Below are positions 1-10,003 of a stretch of DNA of 32,000 bases, in pieces. The stretch's first letter is position 1, and every line of letters begins with the position of its first letter. Where the stretch lies: assembly GCF_000019345.1 (NCBI RefSeq), contig NC_010503.1, positions 60,001-92,000 on the forward strand, given 5' to 3'. The position numbers and the translations under genes are program-made. Origin of the DNA: Ureaplasma parvum serovar 3 str. ATCC 27815. GTDB lineage: Bacteria; Bacillota_I; Bacilli_A; Mycoplasmatales; Mycoplasmoidaceae. The notes under the pieces were generated by a model. It ran no database searches, was not told where the DNA came from, and saw nothing but the letters and a program-made list of their open reading frames with translations.

Positions 1-731
1 AACATGATATGTTAAGACATGAGGAACGAAAGATTTTTAAGTTTTTAAATAAAATTAATGATCGTGTTTTATGGATTTATTTAACTGAAGAGCAAAAATA
101 TAGTACTGATTCATATTCGCGTTATGAACAAAAAATCTTAAAAACGATTAAATCAAATCGTGATGATTTTATTTTGATCGGTCAAGGAGCAATTGAATTT
201 GGTAAGAATCATAATTTAAATGTTCTGCAAACATTTAATGACTCAAATATTAAAAATTTAACTACACAATTAACTAAAATGATTATGATTTTATATACTT
301 TTGATAATTATAAAAAAGTTAATTTTGTTATTAATTCTAATAAAAACTATGATGGACACTTTACTATATTACCAATGAATGAATTTAGTTTTGATAAATT
401 TATTAATTTACAAAAATGCGATTCTAATATTATTGATTTTCAAAAAGTAAAAATTTATCCAAATTTAAATGAATTTATTAATGTCCAAATTAATGTTTTC
501 TTAGTTAATATTATTAATACTTTAATTACTGAATCATCTTTTTATAAAACAAAAAATGGACTAGTAGCTACTAATAATATCCTAAAAGAACTAGATGATA
601 ACCTTTCAAAAATTCAACGTAAAATTACACGTGTAAAGACAGAGTTGCAAATTGAAGAAATAAATTTATTAGCAAGACAAAATATGAATGAAGATGATAA
701 TGATAACGATGGTGGTGTTTATGAATCATAA
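1..731 (+). CDS. F1-like ATPase cluster protein, gamma-subunit-like (5' end probably outside the window)
   Basis: The frame is open to the window edge, with no stop upstream of the ATG at 9. The C-terminal helix LSKIQRKITRVKTELQIEEINLLARQ resembles the conserved C-terminal helix of F-type gamma subunits. An N-terminal gamma helix is not visible, which suggests the gene is truncated by the window. It overlaps the next gene by 11 nt and lies upstream of the alpha-like/beta-like pair. The similarity was judged by eye only. Confidence 0.5.
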   Translation, partial: HDMLRHEERKIFKFLNKINDRVLWIYLTEEQKYSTDSYSRYEQKILKTIKSNRDDFILIGQGAIEFGKNHNLNVLQTFNDSNIKNLTTQLTKMIMILYTFDNYKKVNFVINSNKNYDGHFTILPMNEFSFDKFINLQKCDSNIIDFQKVKIYPNLNEFINVQINVFLVNIINTLITESSFYKTKNGLVATNNILKELDDNLSKIQRKITRVKTELQIEEINLLARQNMNEDDNDNDGGVYES

Positions 732-1200
732 TTATAATATTCAAATTACATTACTTGAAAACAAAAAGTTTAATATTGATAATGGTTTATTATATGTAAA
801 TGTTAATGAAGAAAATACATGACAAAAAATTGAAAACAACACCGTTTTAGCCTATGAAATAATCTTATTAAAAATAGTTGATGATGATTATAAAAAAACT
901 TTTTATTTATTTCTAAAAAACACACATATTTCTGTTTTAAATAACATCGTTAAAATTCAAGCATTAAATGATTTACATTTCTTTATTAAAGATGGATTAA
1001 ACAAAAAAAATAATCATAAAAAAGAGTTGGTAGATAAATATAAAAATATTACTAATAATATTTTAGAACTTGAAGCTAAACAACAATTAGGATTAACTCT
1101 AAGTGAATTTTTAGATCTTGATAATCTAAAACAAGAACAATATATAACTAATATGCAAATTAGATTAAATTTAGTGGAGTATAAAAAAGATGAGAAATAA
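721..1200 (+). CDS. small cytoplasmic protein of the F1-like ATPase cluster (possible epsilon-like subunit)
   Basis: The ATG at 721 overlaps the end of the upstream gene. The 159 codons contain one in-frame TGA and no TAA or TAG until 1198. The ORF track missed this gene because of the TGA. The N-terminal half looks beta-rich and the C-terminal half helical, as in epsilon subunits, but this is weak. It overlaps the next gene by 11 nt. Confidence 0.5.
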
Positions 1201-3355
1201 ATTGAAAATAAAATTAAAATTTTTAGCTTCACTAGCAACAATACCAATTGTAGCTTCACCATTAATTTTTTCTGTTGCAGCTAATGAGGATGGTAAACAA
1301 GAAAACAATAATGGTAATAATCATGATCCTAATCAACAAAAAAAACCAAAAATTCCTAAAAACGATCCTAATTTTAATACTTTTAAAACTGATGCTGATA
1401 AAACTGTTAAAGATAGTTTAGAAAAAGGAATTAATGCTGCTATTGTTTATGTAAAATCACGTCAAGAAGAAATTTTAGAAAATAAAGAAATTGAGTTTAA
1501 GAAAAAAATTCAACAACTAATTTATTTAAAAAATCTGCAGTCATATCTTGAGAAAAATAAAGAAAACATCTTAAAAAATCCTAATGATTATGGTTTTTAT
1601 TTAAATACTCCTCAAATTTTAGGAACTCTTAAAAATTATGATATTAAAGATATTGAGTTTAATGGAGAAACATATAAGCAAATCAAAGTTGGCAAAACTG
1701 ATCCTTTAAATTATCAAAAAGCCGTTGCTCCAAAAGGAAAAATTAGTGATGTACAAAGTGATCAAATTAATGATGTTGAAGAAACAAAATACAAAGATAC
1801 GTTAAAAAAATATGAATCTGAATTTTTAAAAGAAATTAATAAATTAATTTATGATGAAAATGATGTTCCACAAATTAACAAAGATGTTGAGTTAACACGT
1901 GATGAAAAAGGACAATTTAATACAACTTTACCTAAAGGTTATAATGATTGAAACGCTTATTTTATTTCTAAAATAAAAGATCGTGTTACAGCATTTGATT
2001 TAAAACAAAATCAACAAACAAACGAAGATAAACAAGAAGAACAGCCAAATGAGCAAAAAGATCCCGATACACCACCACCATTACCACCACCATTAGTAGA
2101 AGGCGATCATAATGAAATAGATCTTCCCCCAACACAAGCTAATGCTATTATTTCTTCTTTACCACTATTATTACCTTATATTAGTCCTATATATTCAAAT
2201 GAATCATTAAGTGGATTAAAATCAAAATTTGATAGTTTAAAACCAGAGCTTAAACAAACATTATTTTATTTTAATAACCCAATTAACACACGTTATCTTT
2301 ATAGTGTATTAGATTTTGGCGTTAATGGTAGTAGTATGATTAATATTAAAGTTAAAATTATTGATCAAGTTAATCCTAAACTACAACGTACATATATTAT
2401 TAATAAATATGATCCAATTTTAGATATTAATTTTAATAGTCTAAAATTAAATGAAGTTAATGCTATTAAACAAATTTTTGTTAACTTGTATAAACATTTA
2501 GGACTAGATGAGAAAATTGATTATAAGAAATTACGTAACTTTTATATTAGAAATGCTTTATTTACAATGATTGAAGCTGCTCAAAAACTTATTTTGCGAT
2601 TCAATCAAATTGATAAAGATAATAAAATTATTGGTCAAAAAACTTTTGCAACATTACAAAATGAATATTTAGAAAAATACAAACAAAAACTTGTAAACAA
2701 CACCGATGATAAGGAAAGATTATTAAATGAGTTTAATAATTTAACAAAAGAAAATTTCTTTCGTTATTTAAATAACACTTTAATCAATAATGATTATTAT
2801 TGATATCAACTAGTTGGTGCTTATAAACAAGTTAGCTTACAGTTTAGTGAAGTTCTTCGATTAAATAAAGATAAAATTAAAGCTAATATTGCAAGTATTA
2901 AAGGTGATGAAAACACCATTGCAAATTTATATAAATTAAATAACCAATTAATTTATCAATTATCGGCGATTGTTGCACAACGTAGTTTTAATTCTCAACA
3001 ATGATATCAGTCATATTTAAATGTTTTACAACCGATTAAAGAAAATTTTGATTTAATGTCTATATTAACAAATCAAACCGATATTAAAACAAATAAGGAC
3101 AAAGCTAAGGATTTTAAAAATGCATATGATAGTGCTTTAAAATCTCTTGAAAGACAAAAACAAGTAAATAAACAAATTCGTCGTAAGATTGGAATTGCGT
3201 TTATAGTAATTAGCTTACTGGTTTTAATAATTAATTTAATTATTTATGGATTGATTAAAAAACTAAAAAATAAAAAAGTTATTCTAATTATTAATAGTGT
3301 GATAATGGTGTTGACAATCATTGTTTTAATAATGGGAATTATTCTAATAATTTAG
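1190..3355 (+). CDS. exported, membrane-anchored 721-aa protein of the F1-like ATPase cluster (candidate X0 / partner component)
   Basis: Track ORFs 1190..1951, 2336..2803 and 3056..3355 are all in frame 2. They are joined through in-frame TGA codons at 1949, 2801 and 3002, with no TAA or TAG. The N-terminal signal or anchor is MRNKLKIKLKFLASLATIPIVASPLIFSVAAN. A Pro-rich hinge reads DPDTPPPLPPPLVEGD. The C-terminal hairpin has two hydrophobic helices, IGIAFIVISLLVLIINLIIYGLI and VILIINSVIMVLTIIVLIMGIILII. Confidence 0.75.
2072..2095 (+). repeat. perfect tandem duplication of a 12-nt unit ccaccaccatta (encodes PPPL PPPL)
   Basis: The duplication is read directly from the sequence inside the 1190..3355 CDS. 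Confidence 0.9.
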
Positions 3356-3370
3356 AAAGGAAATAGAAAA

Positions 3371-4906
3371 ATGCAAAACACTAAGGCAAACCCTCGTATT
3401 AAATCGATTTTTAACTATATTGTAACTGTTAGTGGAATCTATGATTATCAACATCATCAAATATTTGTTTTAAAAAATGATCCAACAGTAAAATTATTTG
3501 TTATTTCAGCAAAAGAAGATCTTGCTTATTTATTAATTAGCAATGAACATGCTAATATTAATATCGGCGATGAAATCATTGAAACAAATCGTGAAGAAAA
3601 TGTTGTTACTGATTTAAATTATTTCGGGAAGATTATAGATATTAATAATAATTTTATTTGACCAAAACCACTTAATAATCTTCCATCAGCAAAAATTGCT
3701 CAAACTAATCCTGCATTTGGTTTAGCTCATAATTTAATGACAGTGAAAACTTTAAATGAGCAATTAAATACTGGAATTGTAGCAATTGATTTATTAATTC
3801 CGATTGGCAAAGGACAAAGGGAATTAATTATTGGTGATCGTCAAACTGGAAAAACGCATATTGCTTTAAATACTATTATTAATCAAAGCCGTGCTGGCAC
3901 AAAATGTATTTATGTAGCAATTGGTCAAAAACGCGAATCATTAACTACTGTTTATGAAACTTTAAAGGCTCATGACGCATTAAAAAACACAATTATTATC
4001 GATGCTCCTTTAACAGCATATGAACAATATTTAGCACCATATATTGGAATGGCTCATGCTGAAAACTTATCGTATCAAGATGATGTATTAATTGTATTTG
4101 ATGATCTAACAAAACACGCTAATATTATTCGTGAAATGGCTTTATTAACAAATAAACCAGTTGGTAAAGAAGCAATGCCTTCAGATGTATTCTTCTCACA
4201 TTCATCATTACTTGAACGTGCTGGTTCATTCAAAAATCGTAAAACAATTACTGCTTTGCCGATTTTACAAACAGTTGATGGGGATATTACTTCATTAATC
4301 TCTTCAAATATTATTTCTATTACTGATGGTCAAATTGTAACTTCAACTGATTTATTTGCTGCTGGTAAAGTTCCTGCTATTAATATTGATTTATCAGTTT
4401 CAAGAACAGGTTCAAGTGTACAATCAAGAATGATTACTAAAGTAGCAGGTGAAATTAATAAAATTTTTAGACAATACAAACGTCATTTAAAATTAGCAAT
4501 GTTAGATTATGAATTTAATAAAGAAACTAGCCTTTTATTGCATAAAGGTAAATTAATAGATAAAATGTTTTTACAAAAAGGTTTCTCTTTATTTTCATAC
4601 CGTTTTATTGTTTTAAGTACTAAGCTAATTGCCTGAGGCATTTTAAAAGGTGTTAAAGATGAACAAAAAGCATTTATGTTGTTAGATTATGCGATTAATA
4701 ATTATGAAGATGCTCAAAAAGCATTCAATACTATTTCAACAACTCAAAATTATGATGATAAAATTATGAAAAACTACTTTGCTTTCATCCTAAAACAATA
4801 CTCTGATTACTTAAATTTAAATTGAGAAGTTGAATTAGAACATAGTTTTATTCCTTTACAAAATGAGTTTTTAATGAATGTAGCAAAATTTTTAGGAGAT
4901 AAATAA
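3371..4906 (+). CDS. F1-like ATPase alpha-like subunit (AtpA-like)
   Basis: Track ORFs 3371..3661 and 3737..4636 plus the tail are all in frame 2. They are joined by TGA codons at 3659, 4634 and 4823, and the stop is TAA at 4904. The Walker A motif is GDRQTGKT. AIGQKRES, VFDDLTKHA and SDVFFSHSSLLERA match alpha-subunit signature blocks. The RBS-like aaagga lies about 10 nt upstream. Confidence 0.9.
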
Positions 4907-6270
4907 TGAATAACGGCCGAGTTATAAAAATCTGATCAGATATTGTCGAAATTGAATTTAAAAACAGCTTACCAGCTTTAAATCACTTATTAACAACTCA
5001 TGATGGCAATACTTTCTTATTAGTTAAAAGATTAGTTGATGCTACACATGCGAGAGCAATTGTTGTTTATGCATCAAAAGATTTAGCAATTAATGATATT
5101 GTTATTAATACAAACAAAAGTTTTATGGTCCCAGTTGGTAATGATTCAAAAAATAATATTTATAATTTTTGGGGACATCCTTTATTAGAAACTAATAAAA
5201 CACCTAAATATGTTGAAATGAATTCAACAATTTTAAACGAGCGATATGTTGATAAAAGTATAGAAATTGTAGAGACAGGAATTAAAGCAATTGATTTTTT
5301 TATGCCAATTCTAAAAGGATATAAATTAGGAATCTTTGGTGGTGCTGGAGTTGGTAAAACAGTTTTAATGAAAGAAATCATTTTTAACTTAAACAGACAT
5401 AAACAAGCAAATTCAAATATTTTTATTGGTTCAGGAGAGCGTTCACGTGAAGCAATTGAATTATATAATGAATTGACTGCTTCTAATTTAATGCCTAATT
5501 CAGTAATGTTTATTTCTAAGATGAATGAAGCTCCTGGTGCACGTACTTCAATTGTACCAATTGGAATTACTGCTGCTGAATATTTACGTGATCAAAACAA
5601 AGAAAATGTTTTATTGTTTATTGATAATATTTATCGTTTTATTCAAGCTGAAAATGAAGTTTCTACTGCATTAGGTAAAAAACCGTCTGTTGGAGGTTAT
5701 CAATCAACACTAGAAAGTGATGTTACACATATTCAAAATCGATTATTTAGAAATAAAAATGGATCAATTACCTCATTTCAAACAATTTTTTTGCCAATGG
5801 ATGATTTAAGTGATCCATCAGCTGTCGCTGTATTTAATCATTTAGATGGAAAATTAGTATTATCGCGAGCACAAGCTGCTAAAAATATTTTTCCAGCATT
5901 TGATCCATTAGCAAGCTCAACAAACGCTATTGATCCTAAAATTATTGGTGAACGTCATTATAATGCAATTATCGAAACTAAAAAAGTTTTAAAAGCTTAT
6001 AAAGATCTAGAAGATGTTATTTTAATTTTAGGTTTTGATGAACTAGATGCTGAAAGTAAAATTATTGTTAAAAAAGCTTTACAGCTAGAAATGTTCTTTA
6101 CACAAAACTTTTTTATGACTGAACATTTCACAAAAGCTCCTGGTCAGTTTGTTCCATTAAAAGAGACTGTTGAAAGTGTAATTCGTATTTTAGAAGGTAA
6201 ATATTTAAAACAAAGTCCAGATGTTTTTGCCTATATTGGTTCAAATAAGGATATTTCTCAAGATCATTAA
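4906..6270 (+). CDS. F1-like ATPase beta-like subunit (AtpD-like)
   Basis: The ATG at 4906 overlaps the alpha stop (TAATG). There is an in-frame TGA at 4933. The sequence continues into track ORF 5125..6270 in frame 1. The Walker A motif is GGAGVGKT. GSGERSREA, LLFIDNIYRF and the DELSEED-like GFDELDAES match catalytic beta-subunit blocks. Confidence 0.9.
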
Positions 6271-6296
6271 TAATTATTAATTTATATTAAATTTAA

Positions 6297-6330
6297 ACCT
6301 TGGTAACTATATTAATTACCGAGGTTTTTT
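6297..6330 (+). terminator. rho-independent terminator after the ATPase operon
   Basis: The 10-bp stem pairs accttggtaa with ttaccgaggt, including one G-U pair. The loop is 9 nt and a T6 run follows. Confidence 0.75.
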
Positions 6331-6351
6331 ATTAAAATGTTCACCATTAAT

Positions 6352-6396
6352 ATGTTTTGTTTAGTTTCAAAAGTGCAAAATAAAACATCTTTTTTT
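6352..6396 (+). terminator. second hairpin plus T-run (tandem terminator)
   Basis: The 11-bp stem pairs atgttttgttt with aaataaaacat, including one G-U pair. The loop is 15 nt and is followed by c plus a T7 run. Confidence 0.55.
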
Positions 6397-6534: not shown

Positions 6535-9500
6535 GTGGTTTGTAAAAAAAATAAATTGAAAATGTTTGGTTTTATTGCTATTGGAACTGTTTTAACTAGT
6601 GCAATAATTCCTTTTTTAGTTACATGCGCAAAAGAGAAAAAAATAAAGCAAGAAGTTATAAAACCAAAACAAATAAGTAATTTAAATCTTGAAGCTAAAA
6701 ATATTGATATTGTTTTAAAAAATAATGTCTTCAATAAAGAAACAGCAAAATTTACATTGGATTTTGACATAAATAAAGAGTTAAATTTACAAATGGTTGC
6801 TGTTTTTGATGTTTTTGATAAAAAAAATAACTGATTAAAAACAATTAAAACAGCTAAAACAAATTTAGTGGATAAAAAATTTGTTTTTGACAGTTTAGAT
6901 GAGAATGTTAAATATCTACTAAAACAAATTGATTTTTACGATCCAAAAGCGCCTAATCAAATTATTTATACAAAAAACAATCAGACATTTAGTTTTGATA
7001 CTAAAATGGATGATAGCATCGCTAGAACTGTTGAACTAATTATTATTAGTGGGTTTAATGGTTTTGTTGATGAACAAATTGTTCCAGATTATAATAAACA
7101 AACTACATATTTAAAAGCACCCGGGTTAATTCGATTATTAAATGAAGTTAATAAAATTAAAAAAGAACGAGGTGCGAATAATGTTGCTGTAGTTATGGGT
7201 GGAAATAATTATTATGAAAATAATATATCTTCATTAACTAGAGCTCAATATACAACAGCCGCATTAAAGTTTTTAAATCCAGTAGCTACTAGCATCGCTA
7301 ATACTGATTTAAATTGGGGTTATGATTTAATTGACGAAAAAACAAAGCATTTTAAAGAATACGTCAAAGCTTTATATGGTAATGATGGTATTTTATCTGT
7401 TAACTCTTATCTAAAAGATGGTGATAAAAACATACAAATGACTAATAATTCAAAAATTATTAACTTTGGTGGTTTTAAATTAGGATTAATTGGAGCAATG
7501 AGTAATTTAATTAATTTTGAATCTAATCTTAATTTAACAAAAAATATTCAATGATTTAGTAATGAACAAACAGCTAATTTGATTAATGATGAGGCCGATA
7601 AGCTTAAGGATCAAGGTGTTAAAAATATTGTTTTATTATCAAGTTTTTTAGCAGATAAAGCAAAGGAAAATGACACTTTAACTAATGATGAAAAATCTTT
7701 TTATAAAGAAGCATCACGAATGAGTAAATTAATAGATAATAATGTCAATTTAATGAGTGTTATTAATCCTTATAAAGCACTTAATGTAATTGCTAATAAT
7801 AAAAATAATCAACCTTTGAATGTTGTTCAATCAAAACCTAATAGTGGTTTTGTACGATATATGATCACACTAAATCCTTATAACCGTATTTTAAAAACAG
7901 AAATTAAGCTTGTTGATAAACTGTCAACAAGCGGTGATAATGCAGGATATCATTATATAACTCAACAAGATTTATTAAATCCACAAAAAAATCCTGATTT
8001 CAATCAAAATTTGATTACATTAAATAATTTTCTTAATAATTATAAAGATCATGAATACGAGCAATTAAGAGAAAAAATACTGATTAAAAATGATAAAAAA
8101 GTCAATTTATATTCTTCAACATATTCACTTAGTTCCTTAGGAGCGTTTATAAGTGATATATTAGCAAAATACTATCAAGCTCCTTTTTATAATAAACAAA
8201 CACATACTTTTGAATTTAAACAAACACAAGCTATCCTATTAGCTCCTCATGCTATTCGTTCTTTGGTTTCTGCTAAACCTATTAAACTAGAAAATTTAAA
8301 TCAAATTTTACCTTTTAATGATACGTTAGTATCAGGTGAAATTAGTGTTAAAAATCTTAAAGAATTTTTAATTAACAAGAATAAATCTCAAAATTACAAC
8401 GAACCATATCAATTTAGTAATACGCTAAAAATTGAATATGAAAACTTACAAGAAACAAAAACAAAGAAAAAATCAAGAAAAAAACAATCAGAACAAAGTT
8501 ATAGTGATAATGAAAAAAAAGATGGTCTAATTTTAAGTCATCAAAAAAGAGTTATTAAAGTCTTTTTGAAAAATTCAGATGGTACGTATACAGAATTAAA
8601 TGATAATCAAAAAATTATAGTAAGTGTTATGAATTCGATCTTAAAATTTAATAAAAAATTTAGTGAGGCTCTTTTAAATAAAACATACGCTGACCAAACT
8701 AATATTCGTGATTTGCTAAGAACATACTTACCAAAAGAAACACAAATCGATCAAAAATATGATCAAAGTGTGTTTAGTAAAAATGATGCTCGTTTTTATA
8801 AAAAAAAAGAAACAGACCAAAATAAATCACTTATTTACAATCATATTAATGAAAGTATTAATAATAAACAAGCCGATCATTTAAGAATTGGGCACTGAAA
8901 TGTTCTACATCAGACTGGATTAAATGATCCTAAGAACTATGCTTTAGCTAAAACAATTTTATTTAATAAATACGATATTATTGGATTAACAGAAATTTGG
9001 CCTGCAGAAAATAACAATCAGGAACAAAACAATTTACCGTTGATAGGAATCATTAAGTATTTAAATCAGTTAAGTGGCTCAGATGATTATGATTTTTTAA
9101 TTAGTGATAATCTTAAAGGTAGTGAAAATGATAAATTAGCAACAAACGAACATACAAGTACTGAACGAATTGGGATAATTTATAATAAGAAAAAAGTTAA
9201 ACCTATTCCGTTTGCAAATAATAAAATCGGTTATATTTATTCAAATCCATTACAACCTGGCAAATATGAAAAAGCAGAAACTGATTATTCACGTCCACCA
9301 TTTGCTATTAAATTTGCTTCAATTGGTCAAATTAAAAATGATTTTACATTGGTTTTCGGTCATCTTGATAGTCCTGGAACTTATCCATCAAATACAGAAT
9401 ATCAAAAGAAAGAGCATCTACTAAAACGTACAGAATTAGTTAATAAAAAAGTAATTTCAACGAACCAAATGATTAATAAATATGAACAAGGAAGTCGTGA

Positions 9501-9951
9501 AGTGGACGATGCTGAACGATTAGTCAAAGTTATGGAAGAAATTAAAAAAATTGATAACAATAAGGATGATGATTATTTCTTTTTAGGTGATACTAATATT
9601 CGTTTACATAATCAACAATGAGTTTTTAGAACTTTAATTCAAAATGGTTATAGTAGTGTTTTTAGCGATAATGACTTATTTAAATCATCATTAAGTGTAA
9701 ATCCTGGTGAATTTTCAAACCCTTATGATAAAATTTTTTCTCAAGTTAATGGTTTAACTATTTCTAATCCAAGTATTTATAATTTATGAAATGTATATGA
9801 AGATCAAATTGTTGATCAAGAATGGTTAAAAAAAGTGCGTAGTTTATACCCTAATGAATATCATGATAAATTATTTTATATTCGTAACGATATTTCTGAT
9901 CATGCACCTACATTCTTTGATTTAGGTTTAAATAAAAACGACACTAAATAA
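6535..9951 (+). CDS. large surface lipoprotein: 5'-nucleotidase-like region fused to a C-terminal endonuclease/exonuclease/phosphatase (DNase I-like, MnuA-type) membrane nuclease domain
   Basis: Track ORFs 6535..6834, 6868..7554, 7579..8898 and 9040..9621 plus the tail are all in frame 1. They are joined by TGA codons at 6832, 7552, 8896, 9619 and 9787, and the stop is TAA at 9949. The lipoprotein signal is KKNKLKMFGFIAIGTVLTSAIIPFLVTC. The 5'-nucleotidase C-terminal-like block is LGAFISDILAKYY...AILLAPHAIRSL...LPFNDTLVSGEISVKNLKEFL. The EEP motifs are HWNV, IIGLTEI, FTLVFGHLDSPG, FFLGDTNI and ISDHAPTF. Confidence 0.85.
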
Positions 9952-9954
9952 GCA

Positions 9955-10003
9955 AAATGATAACCTCGTGTTCAAAAATTAAACTAGGGGTTATCATTTT
10001 GTT
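9955..10003 (+). terminator. rho-independent terminator after the nuclease gene
   Basis: The 11-bp perfect stem pairs aaatgataacc with ggttatcattt, and ttg follows. Confidence 0.7.

Follow-up and report, generated by a model that had tools for sequence, protein, structure and literature searches.

The first 6.3 kb of a 32,000-nucleotide (nt) stretch of the Ureaplasma parvum serovar 3 str. ATCC 27815 genome (contig NC_010503.1, positions 60,001–92,000; hereafter the window) carry a row of F1-like ATPase genes, which raises the question of what kind of ATPase they encode and what it energizes. An earlier note, made from the sequence alone, had read them as the last five genes of a seven-gene F1-like X0 ATPase cluster. 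We found that window positions 1–6333 are indeed the 3' five-sevenths of a Type 3 F1-like X0 ATPase operon, a class defined by Beven et al. in 2012 (PMC3369863), and not a canonical atp operon. The locus as a whole is best explained as the Type 3 operon UU050–UU054, encoding an ATPase coupled to the antibody capture-and-cleavage machine MIB-MIP, a reading to which we assign a probability of about 0.85.

Open reading frames (ORFs) were called in Python under genetic code 4 (TGA = Trp), which leaves them whole, while table 11 splits them at eight in-frame TGA codons in genes 4 and 5 and in the alpha- and beta-like genes. The G+C content of the window is 21–29%. As the 5' end of the first gene is cut by the window, the data on the upstream genes were taken from three U. 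parvum loci (L005–L007) whose identity to the first 11.2 kb of the window is 99.5–99.7%; position 9281 of locus L007, to which the off-window entries refer, is the counterpart of window position 1. Window positions 1–6270 hold five close-set genes on one strand, and the layout of the cluster, read 5' to 3', is as follows:

Off-window, + strand: second MIP gene, upstream of the MIB gene
Off-window, + strand: MIB gene, preceding the 866-amino-acid (aa) MIP; 791 aa, TIGR04526, 759 bits
Off-window, + strand: MIP gene, ending 29 nt 5' of gene 1; 866 aa, NF045842, 740 bits
Off-window, + strand: gene 1, overlapping gene 2; 496 aa, NF045937 MSC_0624_12TM, 318 bits, UU048 family
Off-window, + strand: gene 2, ending 2 nt 5' of the gamma-like gene; small 171-aa DUF2714 protein (PF10896)
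1–731 (frame of 3–731), + strand: gene 3, gamma-like, UU050; 242 of 304 codons in the window, 5' end cut
721–1200, + strand: gene 4, epsilon-like, UU051; 159 aa
1190–3355, + strand: gene 5, X0 "associated subunit" (protein 5), UU052; 721 aa
3371–4906, + strand: gene 6, alpha-like, UU053; 511 aa
4906–6270, + strand: gene 7, beta-like catalytic subunit, UU054; 454 aa

The products of genes 4, 5, and 7 match U. parvum proteins exactly, among them AAF30457.1 (UU052) and AAF30459.1 (UU054), and the five genes are UU050–UU054 of U. parvum serovar 3. In locus L007 the complete gamma-like protein has 304 aa, with its start 184 nt 5' of the window. The junctions are as the earlier note had described them: genes 3 and 4 overlap by 11 nt (ATGAATCATAA, 721–731), genes 4 and 5 likewise (ATGAGAAATAA, 1190–1200), a gap of 15 nt separates gene 5 from the alpha-like gene, and the alpha- and beta-like genes overlap in TAATG. 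Both 11-nt overlaps take the form ATGA...ATAA, which is consistent with translational coupling along the operon. The first of them presumes that gene 4 starts at ATG 721; the original annotation of UU051 started at ATG 688 (170 aa), and the family profile as well as the N-termini of homologues favor 721.

The class of the operon was determined with curated family models. All five products exceed the cut-offs of the NCBIfam models for the MSC_0618–0622 F1-like ATPase. The gamma-like product matched NF045933 MSC_0622_gamma with 288 bits (cut-off 95) over profile positions 64–295 of 296, so that about 60 residues lie off-window, and the full-length protein of locus L007 reached 362 bits. The epsilon-like product scored 133 bits against NF045935 MSC_0621_epsi (cut-off 42) and has a precomputed Pfam match to PF27304 UU051_N, while protein 5 scored 633 bits against NF045829 UU052_fam, the MSC_0620 associated subunit (cut-off 210). 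For the alpha-like protein, 875 bits were obtained against NF045936 MSC_0619_alpha (cut-off 520), together with a PF00006 match at E = 1.9e-66, and for the beta-like protein 802 bits against NF045934 MSC_0618_beta (cut-off 570). A Pfam scan of the five products recognized the alpha and beta nucleotide-binding domains and no others. No a-, b-, c-, or delta-like genes were found by Pfam and NCBIfam among the window products or the same-species upstream genes, and the remaining 26 kb of the window hold no canonical atp genes; the absence of these subunits and the non-canonical gene order (gamma-epsilon-protein 5-alpha-beta) had both been pointed out before and stood up to these searches.

The cluster is thus an already known member of a described system, and its novelty is low. 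Beven et al. analyzed it in U. parvum ATCC 700970, where the alpha/beta pair was counted as an "extra" copy and placed by their trees in Type 3, sister to that of Metamycoplasma hominis (PMC3369863). Three of the Pfam/NCBIfam subunit families carry the names UU048, UU051, and UU052.

The two further genes that had been predicted upstream were both found in the U. parvum loci, which are at least 99.5% identical to the window: gene 1, of the 12-transmembrane MSC_0624 family, and the DUF2714 gene. Together with the family scores, they establish the window genes as genes 3–7 of a seven-gene Type 3 cluster. The earlier note had expected both to encode membrane proteins; the product of gene 1 has 12 transmembrane segments, and that of gene 2 is a small cytoplasmic protein. 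Two MIB-MIP pairs were counted directly upstream of gene 1, with the same orientation and gaps of at most 36 nt; the order is MIP-MIB-MIP in U. parvum, and U. urealyticum has the same genes plus a further ORF upstream. The MIB-MIP and ATPase genes look like one operon of eleven or more genes. The statement of the earlier note that the neighbor is a surface nuclease rather than MIB-MIP was therefore mistaken, as the nuclease lies downstream only and MIB-MIP lies directly upstream, outside the window; the remaining 26 kb of the window contain no MIB or MIP genes.

How general this arrangement is was surveyed by a family-profile scan of species-representative genomes, with ORFs called under code 4 and iterated hidden Markov models (HMMs) seeded with the U. 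parvum proteins. It returned 31 loci, all from Mollicutes species other than U. parvum, U. urealyticum, and M. hominis. Genes 1–7 follow each other in the same order at 26 of them; at four others genes 1–5 stand apart from alpha and beta, which lie elsewhere, and a contig end truncates the remaining one. MIB/MIP genes stand directly upstream of gene 1 at 25 of the 31 loci and are missing within 10 kb at five, two of which are cut by contig ends. This survey reproduces a published one, in which all 126 MIB-MIP-positive strains (126/126) carried all seven ATPase genes (PMC12994834). In U. canigenitalium (L035) a MIB-MIP pair lies downstream of the cluster. Two irregular Ureaplasma records were also seen: U. 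parvum CP021988 (L005, 2064–4478) has no gene on record at the MIB position of other strains, and in U. urealyticum GCA_000255375.2 (L001, 10905–11099) the epsilon-like gene is called as 64 aa with in-frame stop codons. Both the MIB gap and the epsilon frameshift could be sequencing errors or strain-level inactivation.

Whether the encoded motor can hydrolyze ATP depends on the alpha- and beta-like subunits, in which all motifs quoted before are present; with the Arg-finger motif added, their positions are:

3833–3856, + strand: alpha-like Walker A, GDRQTGKT, aa 155–162 (translation)
4394–4411, + strand: alpha-like Arg-finger motif, SVSRTG (alignment to solved alpha chains)
5338–5361, + strand: beta-like Walker A, GGAGVGKT, aa 145–152, with Lys151
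5434–5451, + strand: beta-like GERSRE, aa 177–182 (translation)
5611–5628, + strand: beta-like Walker B, LLFIDN, aa 236–241 (translation)
6037–6057, + strand: beta-like DELDAES (DELSEED-like), aa 378–384 (translation)

The best match of the beta-like protein in the PDB was 8spv_D (354 bits), with 6n2y_D nearly equal. In the alignment to 8spv_D, the P-loop K151, the Glu and Arg of GER, and the Walker B Asp are all kept, and the adenine-stacking aromatic is kept as Phe. Judged from this alignment, the catalytic site of the beta-like subunit is intact, and the impression of catalytic competence given by the motifs alone extends to the single residues (Walker A Lys, GER Glu/Arg, Walker B Asp). The SVSR arginine finger is retained in the alpha-like protein, whose alignment begins only at position 32 of the atpA profile and at about residue 30 of bovine alpha, which indicates that it lacks the N-terminal helix to which delta and the peripheral stalk bind.

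The gamma-like reading of the first gene was checked with AlphaFold2 and Foldseek and was upheld. The model, made on the U. urealyticum orthologue (99% identical to the window protein), had a mean predicted local distance difference test score (pLDDT) of 83.8 and a predicted template modeling score (pTM) of 0.77, and consists of long N- and C-terminal helices around an alpha/beta domain. In the PDB, the top 50 of 50 Foldseek matches were F-ATPase gamma chains (best 7p2y_g, E = 7.9e-11), among them gamma of the Mycoplasma mobile G1-ATPase, 9io5_G, and the TM-score to the canonical gamma fold was about 0.6. The predicted structure thus confirms an F1 gamma fold for the product of gene 3. At the sequence level, PF00231 (F-ATPase gamma) was detected in 22 of 33 gamma-like family members when each was searched singly, and a profile of the 33 sequences found no solved gamma chain among the PDB sequences. 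For the epsilon-like protein, a 27-sequence profile retrieved no solved epsilon chain from the PDB and no Pfam match (ATP-synt_DE_N included), and a word-index search found only Ureaplasma proteins. Its assignment as epsilon rests on the curated family, on the position after gamma, and on a published AlphaFold3 model of the M. mycoides homologue (pTM 0.89) that resembles epsilon (PMC12994834), and should be taken as putative.

What the motor energizes, which the earlier note had left open, is suggested by work on Mycoplasma mycoides, where MIB-MIP cannot function without the Type 3 ATPase, which is also recovered together with MIB and MIP on purification (PMC12994834). All seven proteins are made in that species and are associated with the membrane, where a major ATPase activity is due to the cluster (PMC3369863). 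Deletion of the cluster, or the Walker-A substitution K152A in beta, abolishes MIB-MIP-dependent protection from antibody agglutination, although the mutants retain the MIB and MIP proteins (PMC12994834). The cross-linked homologue of protein 5 pulls down the gene 1 product, the gamma-, epsilon-, alpha-, and beta-like subunits, MIB, and MIP, with the gene 2 protein at background level only (PMC12994834). In M. hominis, MIB-MIP cleaves human IgG and IgM, and its genes are followed by the seven ATPase genes (PMC10581049).

The M. mycoides cluster (MSC_0618–0624 / MMCAP2_0575–0581) has the same seven-gene order as that of U. parvum, with every subunit in the same curated family: a 12-transmembrane protein, a small cytoplasmic protein, the gamma- and epsilon-like subunits, a protein with a signal peptide and two transmembrane segments, and the alpha- and beta-like subunits. 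In both, MIB-MIP pairs stand directly upstream on the same strand and alpha has no N-terminal helix (PMC12994834), and the Walker-A Lys of beta is shared (K152 in M. mycoides subsp. capri, K151 in U. parvum). The sequences have diverged (about 42–46% identity for the gamma-like proteins), and U. parvum has two MIB-MIP pairs, whereas M. mycoides subsp. capri has four (PMC12994834). Protein 5 has 721 aa in U. parvum (about 83 kDa, estimated from length) vs. about 87 kDa in M. mycoides, with a disordered N-terminus that is N/Q/K/P-rich in the former and Gly/Ser-rich in the latter (PMC12994834). The U. parvum complex is known here from its genes, and that of M. mycoides from experiment.

Protein 5 is, with protein 1, a subunit through which work would be passed across the membrane. 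Its features, taken from a hydropathy scan, from the translation, and from an AlphaFold2 model built on an alignment of 61 relatives (pLDDT 88.5), are the following:

aa 1–51: disordered stretch, N/Q/K/P-rich (AlphaFold2)
1220–1282, + strand: hydrophobic N-terminal segment, aa 11–31, preceded by MRNKLKIKLK (hydropathy)
1343–2044, + strand: globular domain 1, aa 52–285, mixed alpha/beta (AlphaFold2, pLDDT mostly > 90)
2045–2125, + strand: low-confidence linker, aa 286–312 (AlphaFold2)
2063–2095, + strand: Pro-rich stretch PDTPPPLPPPL, aa 292–302, within the linker
2126–3094, + strand: globular domain 2, aa 313 to about 635 (about 630) (AlphaFold2)
2264–2302, + strand: the most conserved motif of the family, F-[FY]-F-N-N-P-I-N-T-R-Y-x-Y, in domain 2
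3173–3352, + strand: C-terminal transmembrane hairpin, about aa 667–688 and 697–721, loop KKLKNKK (hydropathy)

The segment aa 11–31 is a predicted signal peptide or signal anchor, and as it contains no Cys, there is no lipobox. At the other end, the model has helices at 636–689 and 696–720, the first of which continues directly into the transmembrane hairpin, and the protein terminates where the second hairpin helix ends. Within the conserved motif region, N363 and Y371 are invariant in all 61 sequences. The family is small: an exhaustive search of 1.84 billion cluster representatives returned only 99 relatives, nearly all of them full-length, and Foldseek found no structural analogue of the model in BFVD or among 350,542 PDB chains. 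Of the 61 family members, 58 share the N-terminal hydrophobic segment; the n-region holds on average 3.7 K+R and zero acidic residues, and the hairpin loop 5.1 K+R vs. 2.4 in the 15 residues preceding the hairpin. Under the positive-inside rule, these charge statistics place the body of protein 5 outside the cell, as is also suggested by AlphaFold3 models of the complex (PMC12994834). From these sequence features, we regard the body as probably external.

Taken together, these elements are compatible with the following mechanism. A cytoplasmic alpha3-beta3 hexamer would hydrolyze ATP and turn or strain a gamma/epsilon shaft, which would dock on the 12-transmembrane protein 1 instead of a c-ring. 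As there are no a, b, c, or delta subunits and no peripheral stalk, and alpha lacks the delta-binding helix, the complex would act as an ATPase only and not as an ion-coupled synthase. Conformational work would then cross the membrane via protein 1 and the transmembrane hairpin of protein 5, whose two-domain body, probably outside, would act on MIB and/or MIP, forcing the release of the cleaved antibody and resetting the system. That protein 5 is an extracellular force transducer with a new fold is suggested by the model and is put forward tentatively. If true, MIB or MIP (or protein 1) would be contacted through the invariant F-F-F-N-N-P-I-N-T-R-Y patch of domain 2, and the complex would be a rotary ATPase that performs mechanical work outward on surface proteins and does not transport ions. 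The idea of outward work is already hypothesized in outline by the authors of the 2026 study (PMC12994834), and only the structural specifics would be new here.

Several points weigh against the MIB-MIP-coupled reading. The functional link in Ureaplasma would hold by homology and synteny, having been transferred from M. mycoides, for which the 2026 authors themselves call the coupling mechanism "currently unknown" and did not detect on mutant cells the cleaved immunoglobulin (Ig) that the model predicts (PMC12994834). M. mobile has a Type 3 cluster and no MIB-MIP (PMC12994834), so that the ATPase can be kept in the absence of this partner. In M. mycoides, residues 182–231 of the protein 5 homologue were placed in the cytoplasm by trypsin shaving (PMC3369863), which conflicts with an external transducer role; the earlier note had called the 721-aa protein mostly extracellular, and while its sequence features fit this, it is a prediction and not an observation, and the trypsin data conflict with it. 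Concerning the epsilon-like subunit, hhalign gave a probability of only 0.2% against E. coli epsilon (an exact match to 5t4o_H), and this result, like those from the PDB and Pfam, agrees with the similarity to canonical epsilon of less than 11% reported in 2012 (PMC3369863). Finally, the canonical atp operon of U. parvum is known only from Beven et al. (PMC3369863).

The main rival accepts the Type 3 ATPase and holds that its main job is not the mechanical resetting of MIB-MIP but that of an ATP-driven transporter or a secretion/assembly machine with protein 1 as the conduit, needed indirectly for the export, insertion, or organizing of MIB, MIP, or other surface proteins, or serving a Ureaplasma-specific role. 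The polytopic nature of protein 1, with its 12 transmembrane segments, would suit a conduit, and the 2026 authors, who did not detect the retained cleaved Ig of their model, allow that the mutants may merely disorganize MIB-MIP (PMC12994834). M. mobile not only keeps but partly expresses its Type 3 cluster in the absence of MIB-MIP (PMC12994834), and the five of 31 surveyed loci without MIB/MIP within 10 kb (two of the five being the ones cut by contig ends) point in the same direction. Against this alternative stand the persistence of MIB and MIP in the M. mycoides ATPase mutants, their co-purification with the complex, and the complete gene set in the 126 MIB-MIP-positive strains (PMC12994834). 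Furthermore, the transmembrane segments of proteins 1 and 5 are devoid of the charged residues expected for ion translocation (PMC3369863), and the large conserved non-membrane body of protein 5 argues for a protein-protein role. On balance, we consider this alternative unlikely and prefer coupling to MIB-MIP.

A Type 2 (G1-ATPase) gliding-motor cluster such as MMOB1610–1670 of M. mobile was considered next, as it shares the seven-gene architecture and has an alpha3-beta3-gamma core that is F1-like and works as a motor using ATP to transmit force through the membrane (PMC12994834). The gamma-like model matches the gamma chain 9io5_G of this motor with E = 4e-9, and the alpha- and beta-like proteins score 247 and 265 bits against the 9io5 chains. 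Against the family models of the gliding motor, though, both remain under the cut-offs (glide_MMOB1660, 386 bits vs. 600; glide_MMOB1670, 335 bits vs. 850), and the beta-like protein covers only profile positions 336–687 of 705, the C-terminal half, and thus lacks the extra N-terminal dimerization domain (about 30 kDa) by which twin motors are formed in M. mobile. Ureaplasma is not known to glide. In M. mobile the output of the motor is gliding and not antibody evasion, the counterpart of protein 5 is far larger, with an unrelated structure (PMC12994834), and Type 2 has been reported solely in M. mobile and M. pulmonis (PMC3369863). Judged by the family scores and the absent beta domain, a Type 2 cluster is already refuted, and we give it hardly any chance.

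A canonical (Type 1) F1Fo ATP synthase operon with an unusual gene order is equally hard to maintain. It would account for the strong PF00006 matches of the alpha- and beta-like proteins, for their nearest solved relatives being F1 alpha and beta, and for older annotations that name the pair "ATP synthase alpha/beta chain"; with canonical F1Fo (PDB 6n2y, 6oqr) the cluster does share the alpha/beta nucleotide-binding fold, the full set of catalytic residues, and the gamma fold. Yet the alpha-like protein scores 318 bits against atpA TIGR00962 (cut-off 484.45) and the beta-like protein 427 bits against atpD TIGR01039 (cut-off 462.85), far below their 875 and 802 bits with the Type 3 models. The a, b, c, and delta subunits and the peripheral stalk are missing, hence no ion-coupled synthesis; the membrane sector consists of the 12-transmembrane protein and protein 5, the gene order differs (gamma-epsilon-X-alpha-beta), and alpha has no delta-binding N-terminus. 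A separate, typical eight-gene F1Fo operon is reported for all mollicutes except phytoplasmas, and the 2012 analysis counts this U. parvum pair as "extra" (PMC3369863). The canonical interpretation is thus already effectively refuted, with a negligible probability left to it.

Selection on the cluster was assessed by the ratio of nonsynonymous to synonymous divergence (dN/dS) between U. parvum (L007) and U. urealyticum (L002) for nine genes (MIB, MIP, and all seven genes of the ATPase). All nine are intact with dN/dS values of 0.03–0.25, and all are under purifying selection; intact genes with such ratios mean that the cluster is not decaying. A further explanation, that the cluster came in by horizontal transfer and is now a decaying remnant without function, could appeal to the horizontal acquisition itself, to the frameshifted epsilon-like gene of one U. 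urealyticum assembly (L001), and to the toleration in culture of transposon insertions in the M. hominis homologues, with mutants in three ATPase genes (PMC10581049), but it is contradicted by the dN/dS values, the intact catalytic residues, the preserved translationally coupled overlaps, and ORFs that are intact in the window and in six of seven Ureaplasma loci, and we see next to no likelihood in it.

The origin of the cluster was approached by ranking the relatives of its proteins. Those closest to the U. parvum proteins came from M. hominis (58–61% identity for gamma-like, about 50% for protein 5), M. orale, M. lipophila, and M. primatum, while the congeneric U. canigenitalium ranked 6th to 30th depending on the protein. 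For all nine MIB, MIP, and ATPase proteins, the sequences of the human ureaplasmas are nearer to Hominis-group species than to U. canigenitalium (the nine-protein ranking compared L035 with L008, L010, and L011, and M. hominis was compared for the gamma-like protein and protein 5 only). These rankings support horizontal transfer between human ureaplasmas and species of the Hominis group, as already published with trees in which the U. parvum and M. hominis clusters are sisters (PMC12994834). The M. hominis locus (Mhom132_03120 etc.) is the nearest relative outside Ureaplasma and has the same layout of MIB-MIP followed by the seven-gene operon (PMC10581049). Both species inhabit the human urogenital tract, though M. 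hominis belongs to the Hominis group and U. parvum to the Pneumoniae group; IgG/IgM cleavage has been shown for the MIB-MIP of the former (PMC10581049), whereas the Ureaplasma system is predicted.

Between the two human Ureaplasma species, divergence is mosaic. U. urealyticum is 96.3% identical to window positions 1–6291. Between L007 and L002, nucleotide identity is 96.5–99.3% from MIB through the alpha-like gene (99–100% in the first 3 kb) and 89.5% in the beta-like gene; synonymous divergence (dS) is 0.03–0.13 over the former and 0.57 in the latter, the change falling within window positions of about 4800–6300. This pattern suggests that the two species recently exchanged the block from MIB-MIP to alpha, with a putative breakpoint near the alpha/beta junction.

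The cluster type has been known since 2012, with this genome included (PMC3369863), and a function was assigned to it in 2026 (PMC12994834). The picture that emerges is of a genome-reduced pathogen that has retained a second motor derived from F1, one whose membrane sector occurs in no other system, and couples it to an antibody capture-and-cleavage machine. As U. parvum is a pathogen of the human urogenital tract and of newborns, its MIB-MIP-ATPase locus plausibly contributes to immune evasion and could serve as a target. Our analysis corrects the first description of the locus in placing MIB-MIP upstream, in accepting one real terminator, and in treating the topology of protein 5 as contested, and makes modest additions in the confident protein 5 model, without structural analogue in PDB or BFVD, and in the mosaic divergence described above.

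The operon had been described as closed by two terminators, and one of them was retained. The two candidates, both on the + strand, are:

6295–6333, + strand: intrinsic terminator closing the operon, a 12-bp hairpin (6295–6327) followed by U6, 24 nt after the beta stop
6352–6395, + strand: second hairpin (6352–6388), AU-rich, followed by a U run, not supported as a terminator

The first hairpin has a folding free energy (dG) of -13.5 kcal/mol and z = -4.25, and none of 200 shuffled sequences folded as well. The second (z = -1.1, with 29 of 200 shuffles folding as well) is no better than chance. A consensus terminator scan flagged neither hairpin, because it demands at least three G-C pairs. 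The similarity of U. urealyticum to the window collapses exactly after the operon terminator. Between its beta-like and nuclease genes, U. urealyticum carries an extra 412-aa ORF (L001, 16607–17845) with no Pfam match, which the window does not have (6292–6375 region).

The downstream neighbor (6535–9951, + strand) encodes an 1138-aa protein with a hydrophobic N-terminus and a Cys in a lipobox-like LVTC, in which a 5'-nucleotidase-like region (PF02872) is fused to a C-terminal membrane nuclease of the MnuA family (NF045851, 287 bits). Its identity to the U. urealyticum gene is only about 81%, and the record of U. parvum CP021988 divides it into two ORFs (534 and 596 aa). No tRNA genes and no Rfam matches were found in the window. 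Its remaining part (10271–31902) is occupied by housekeeping genes, among them RNase R (from Pfam on the matching loci), PepF, a pta-like gene, a GntR-like regulator, an MPN555-family chaperone, a CNNM/CBS-domain protein, WhiA, and thioredoxin reductase, as well as further ORFs. Just 3' of the nuclease stop, a strong hairpin (9951–10003, + strand; fragment dG = -28 kcal/mol, z = -5.58) is likely the terminator ahead of the RNase R gene.

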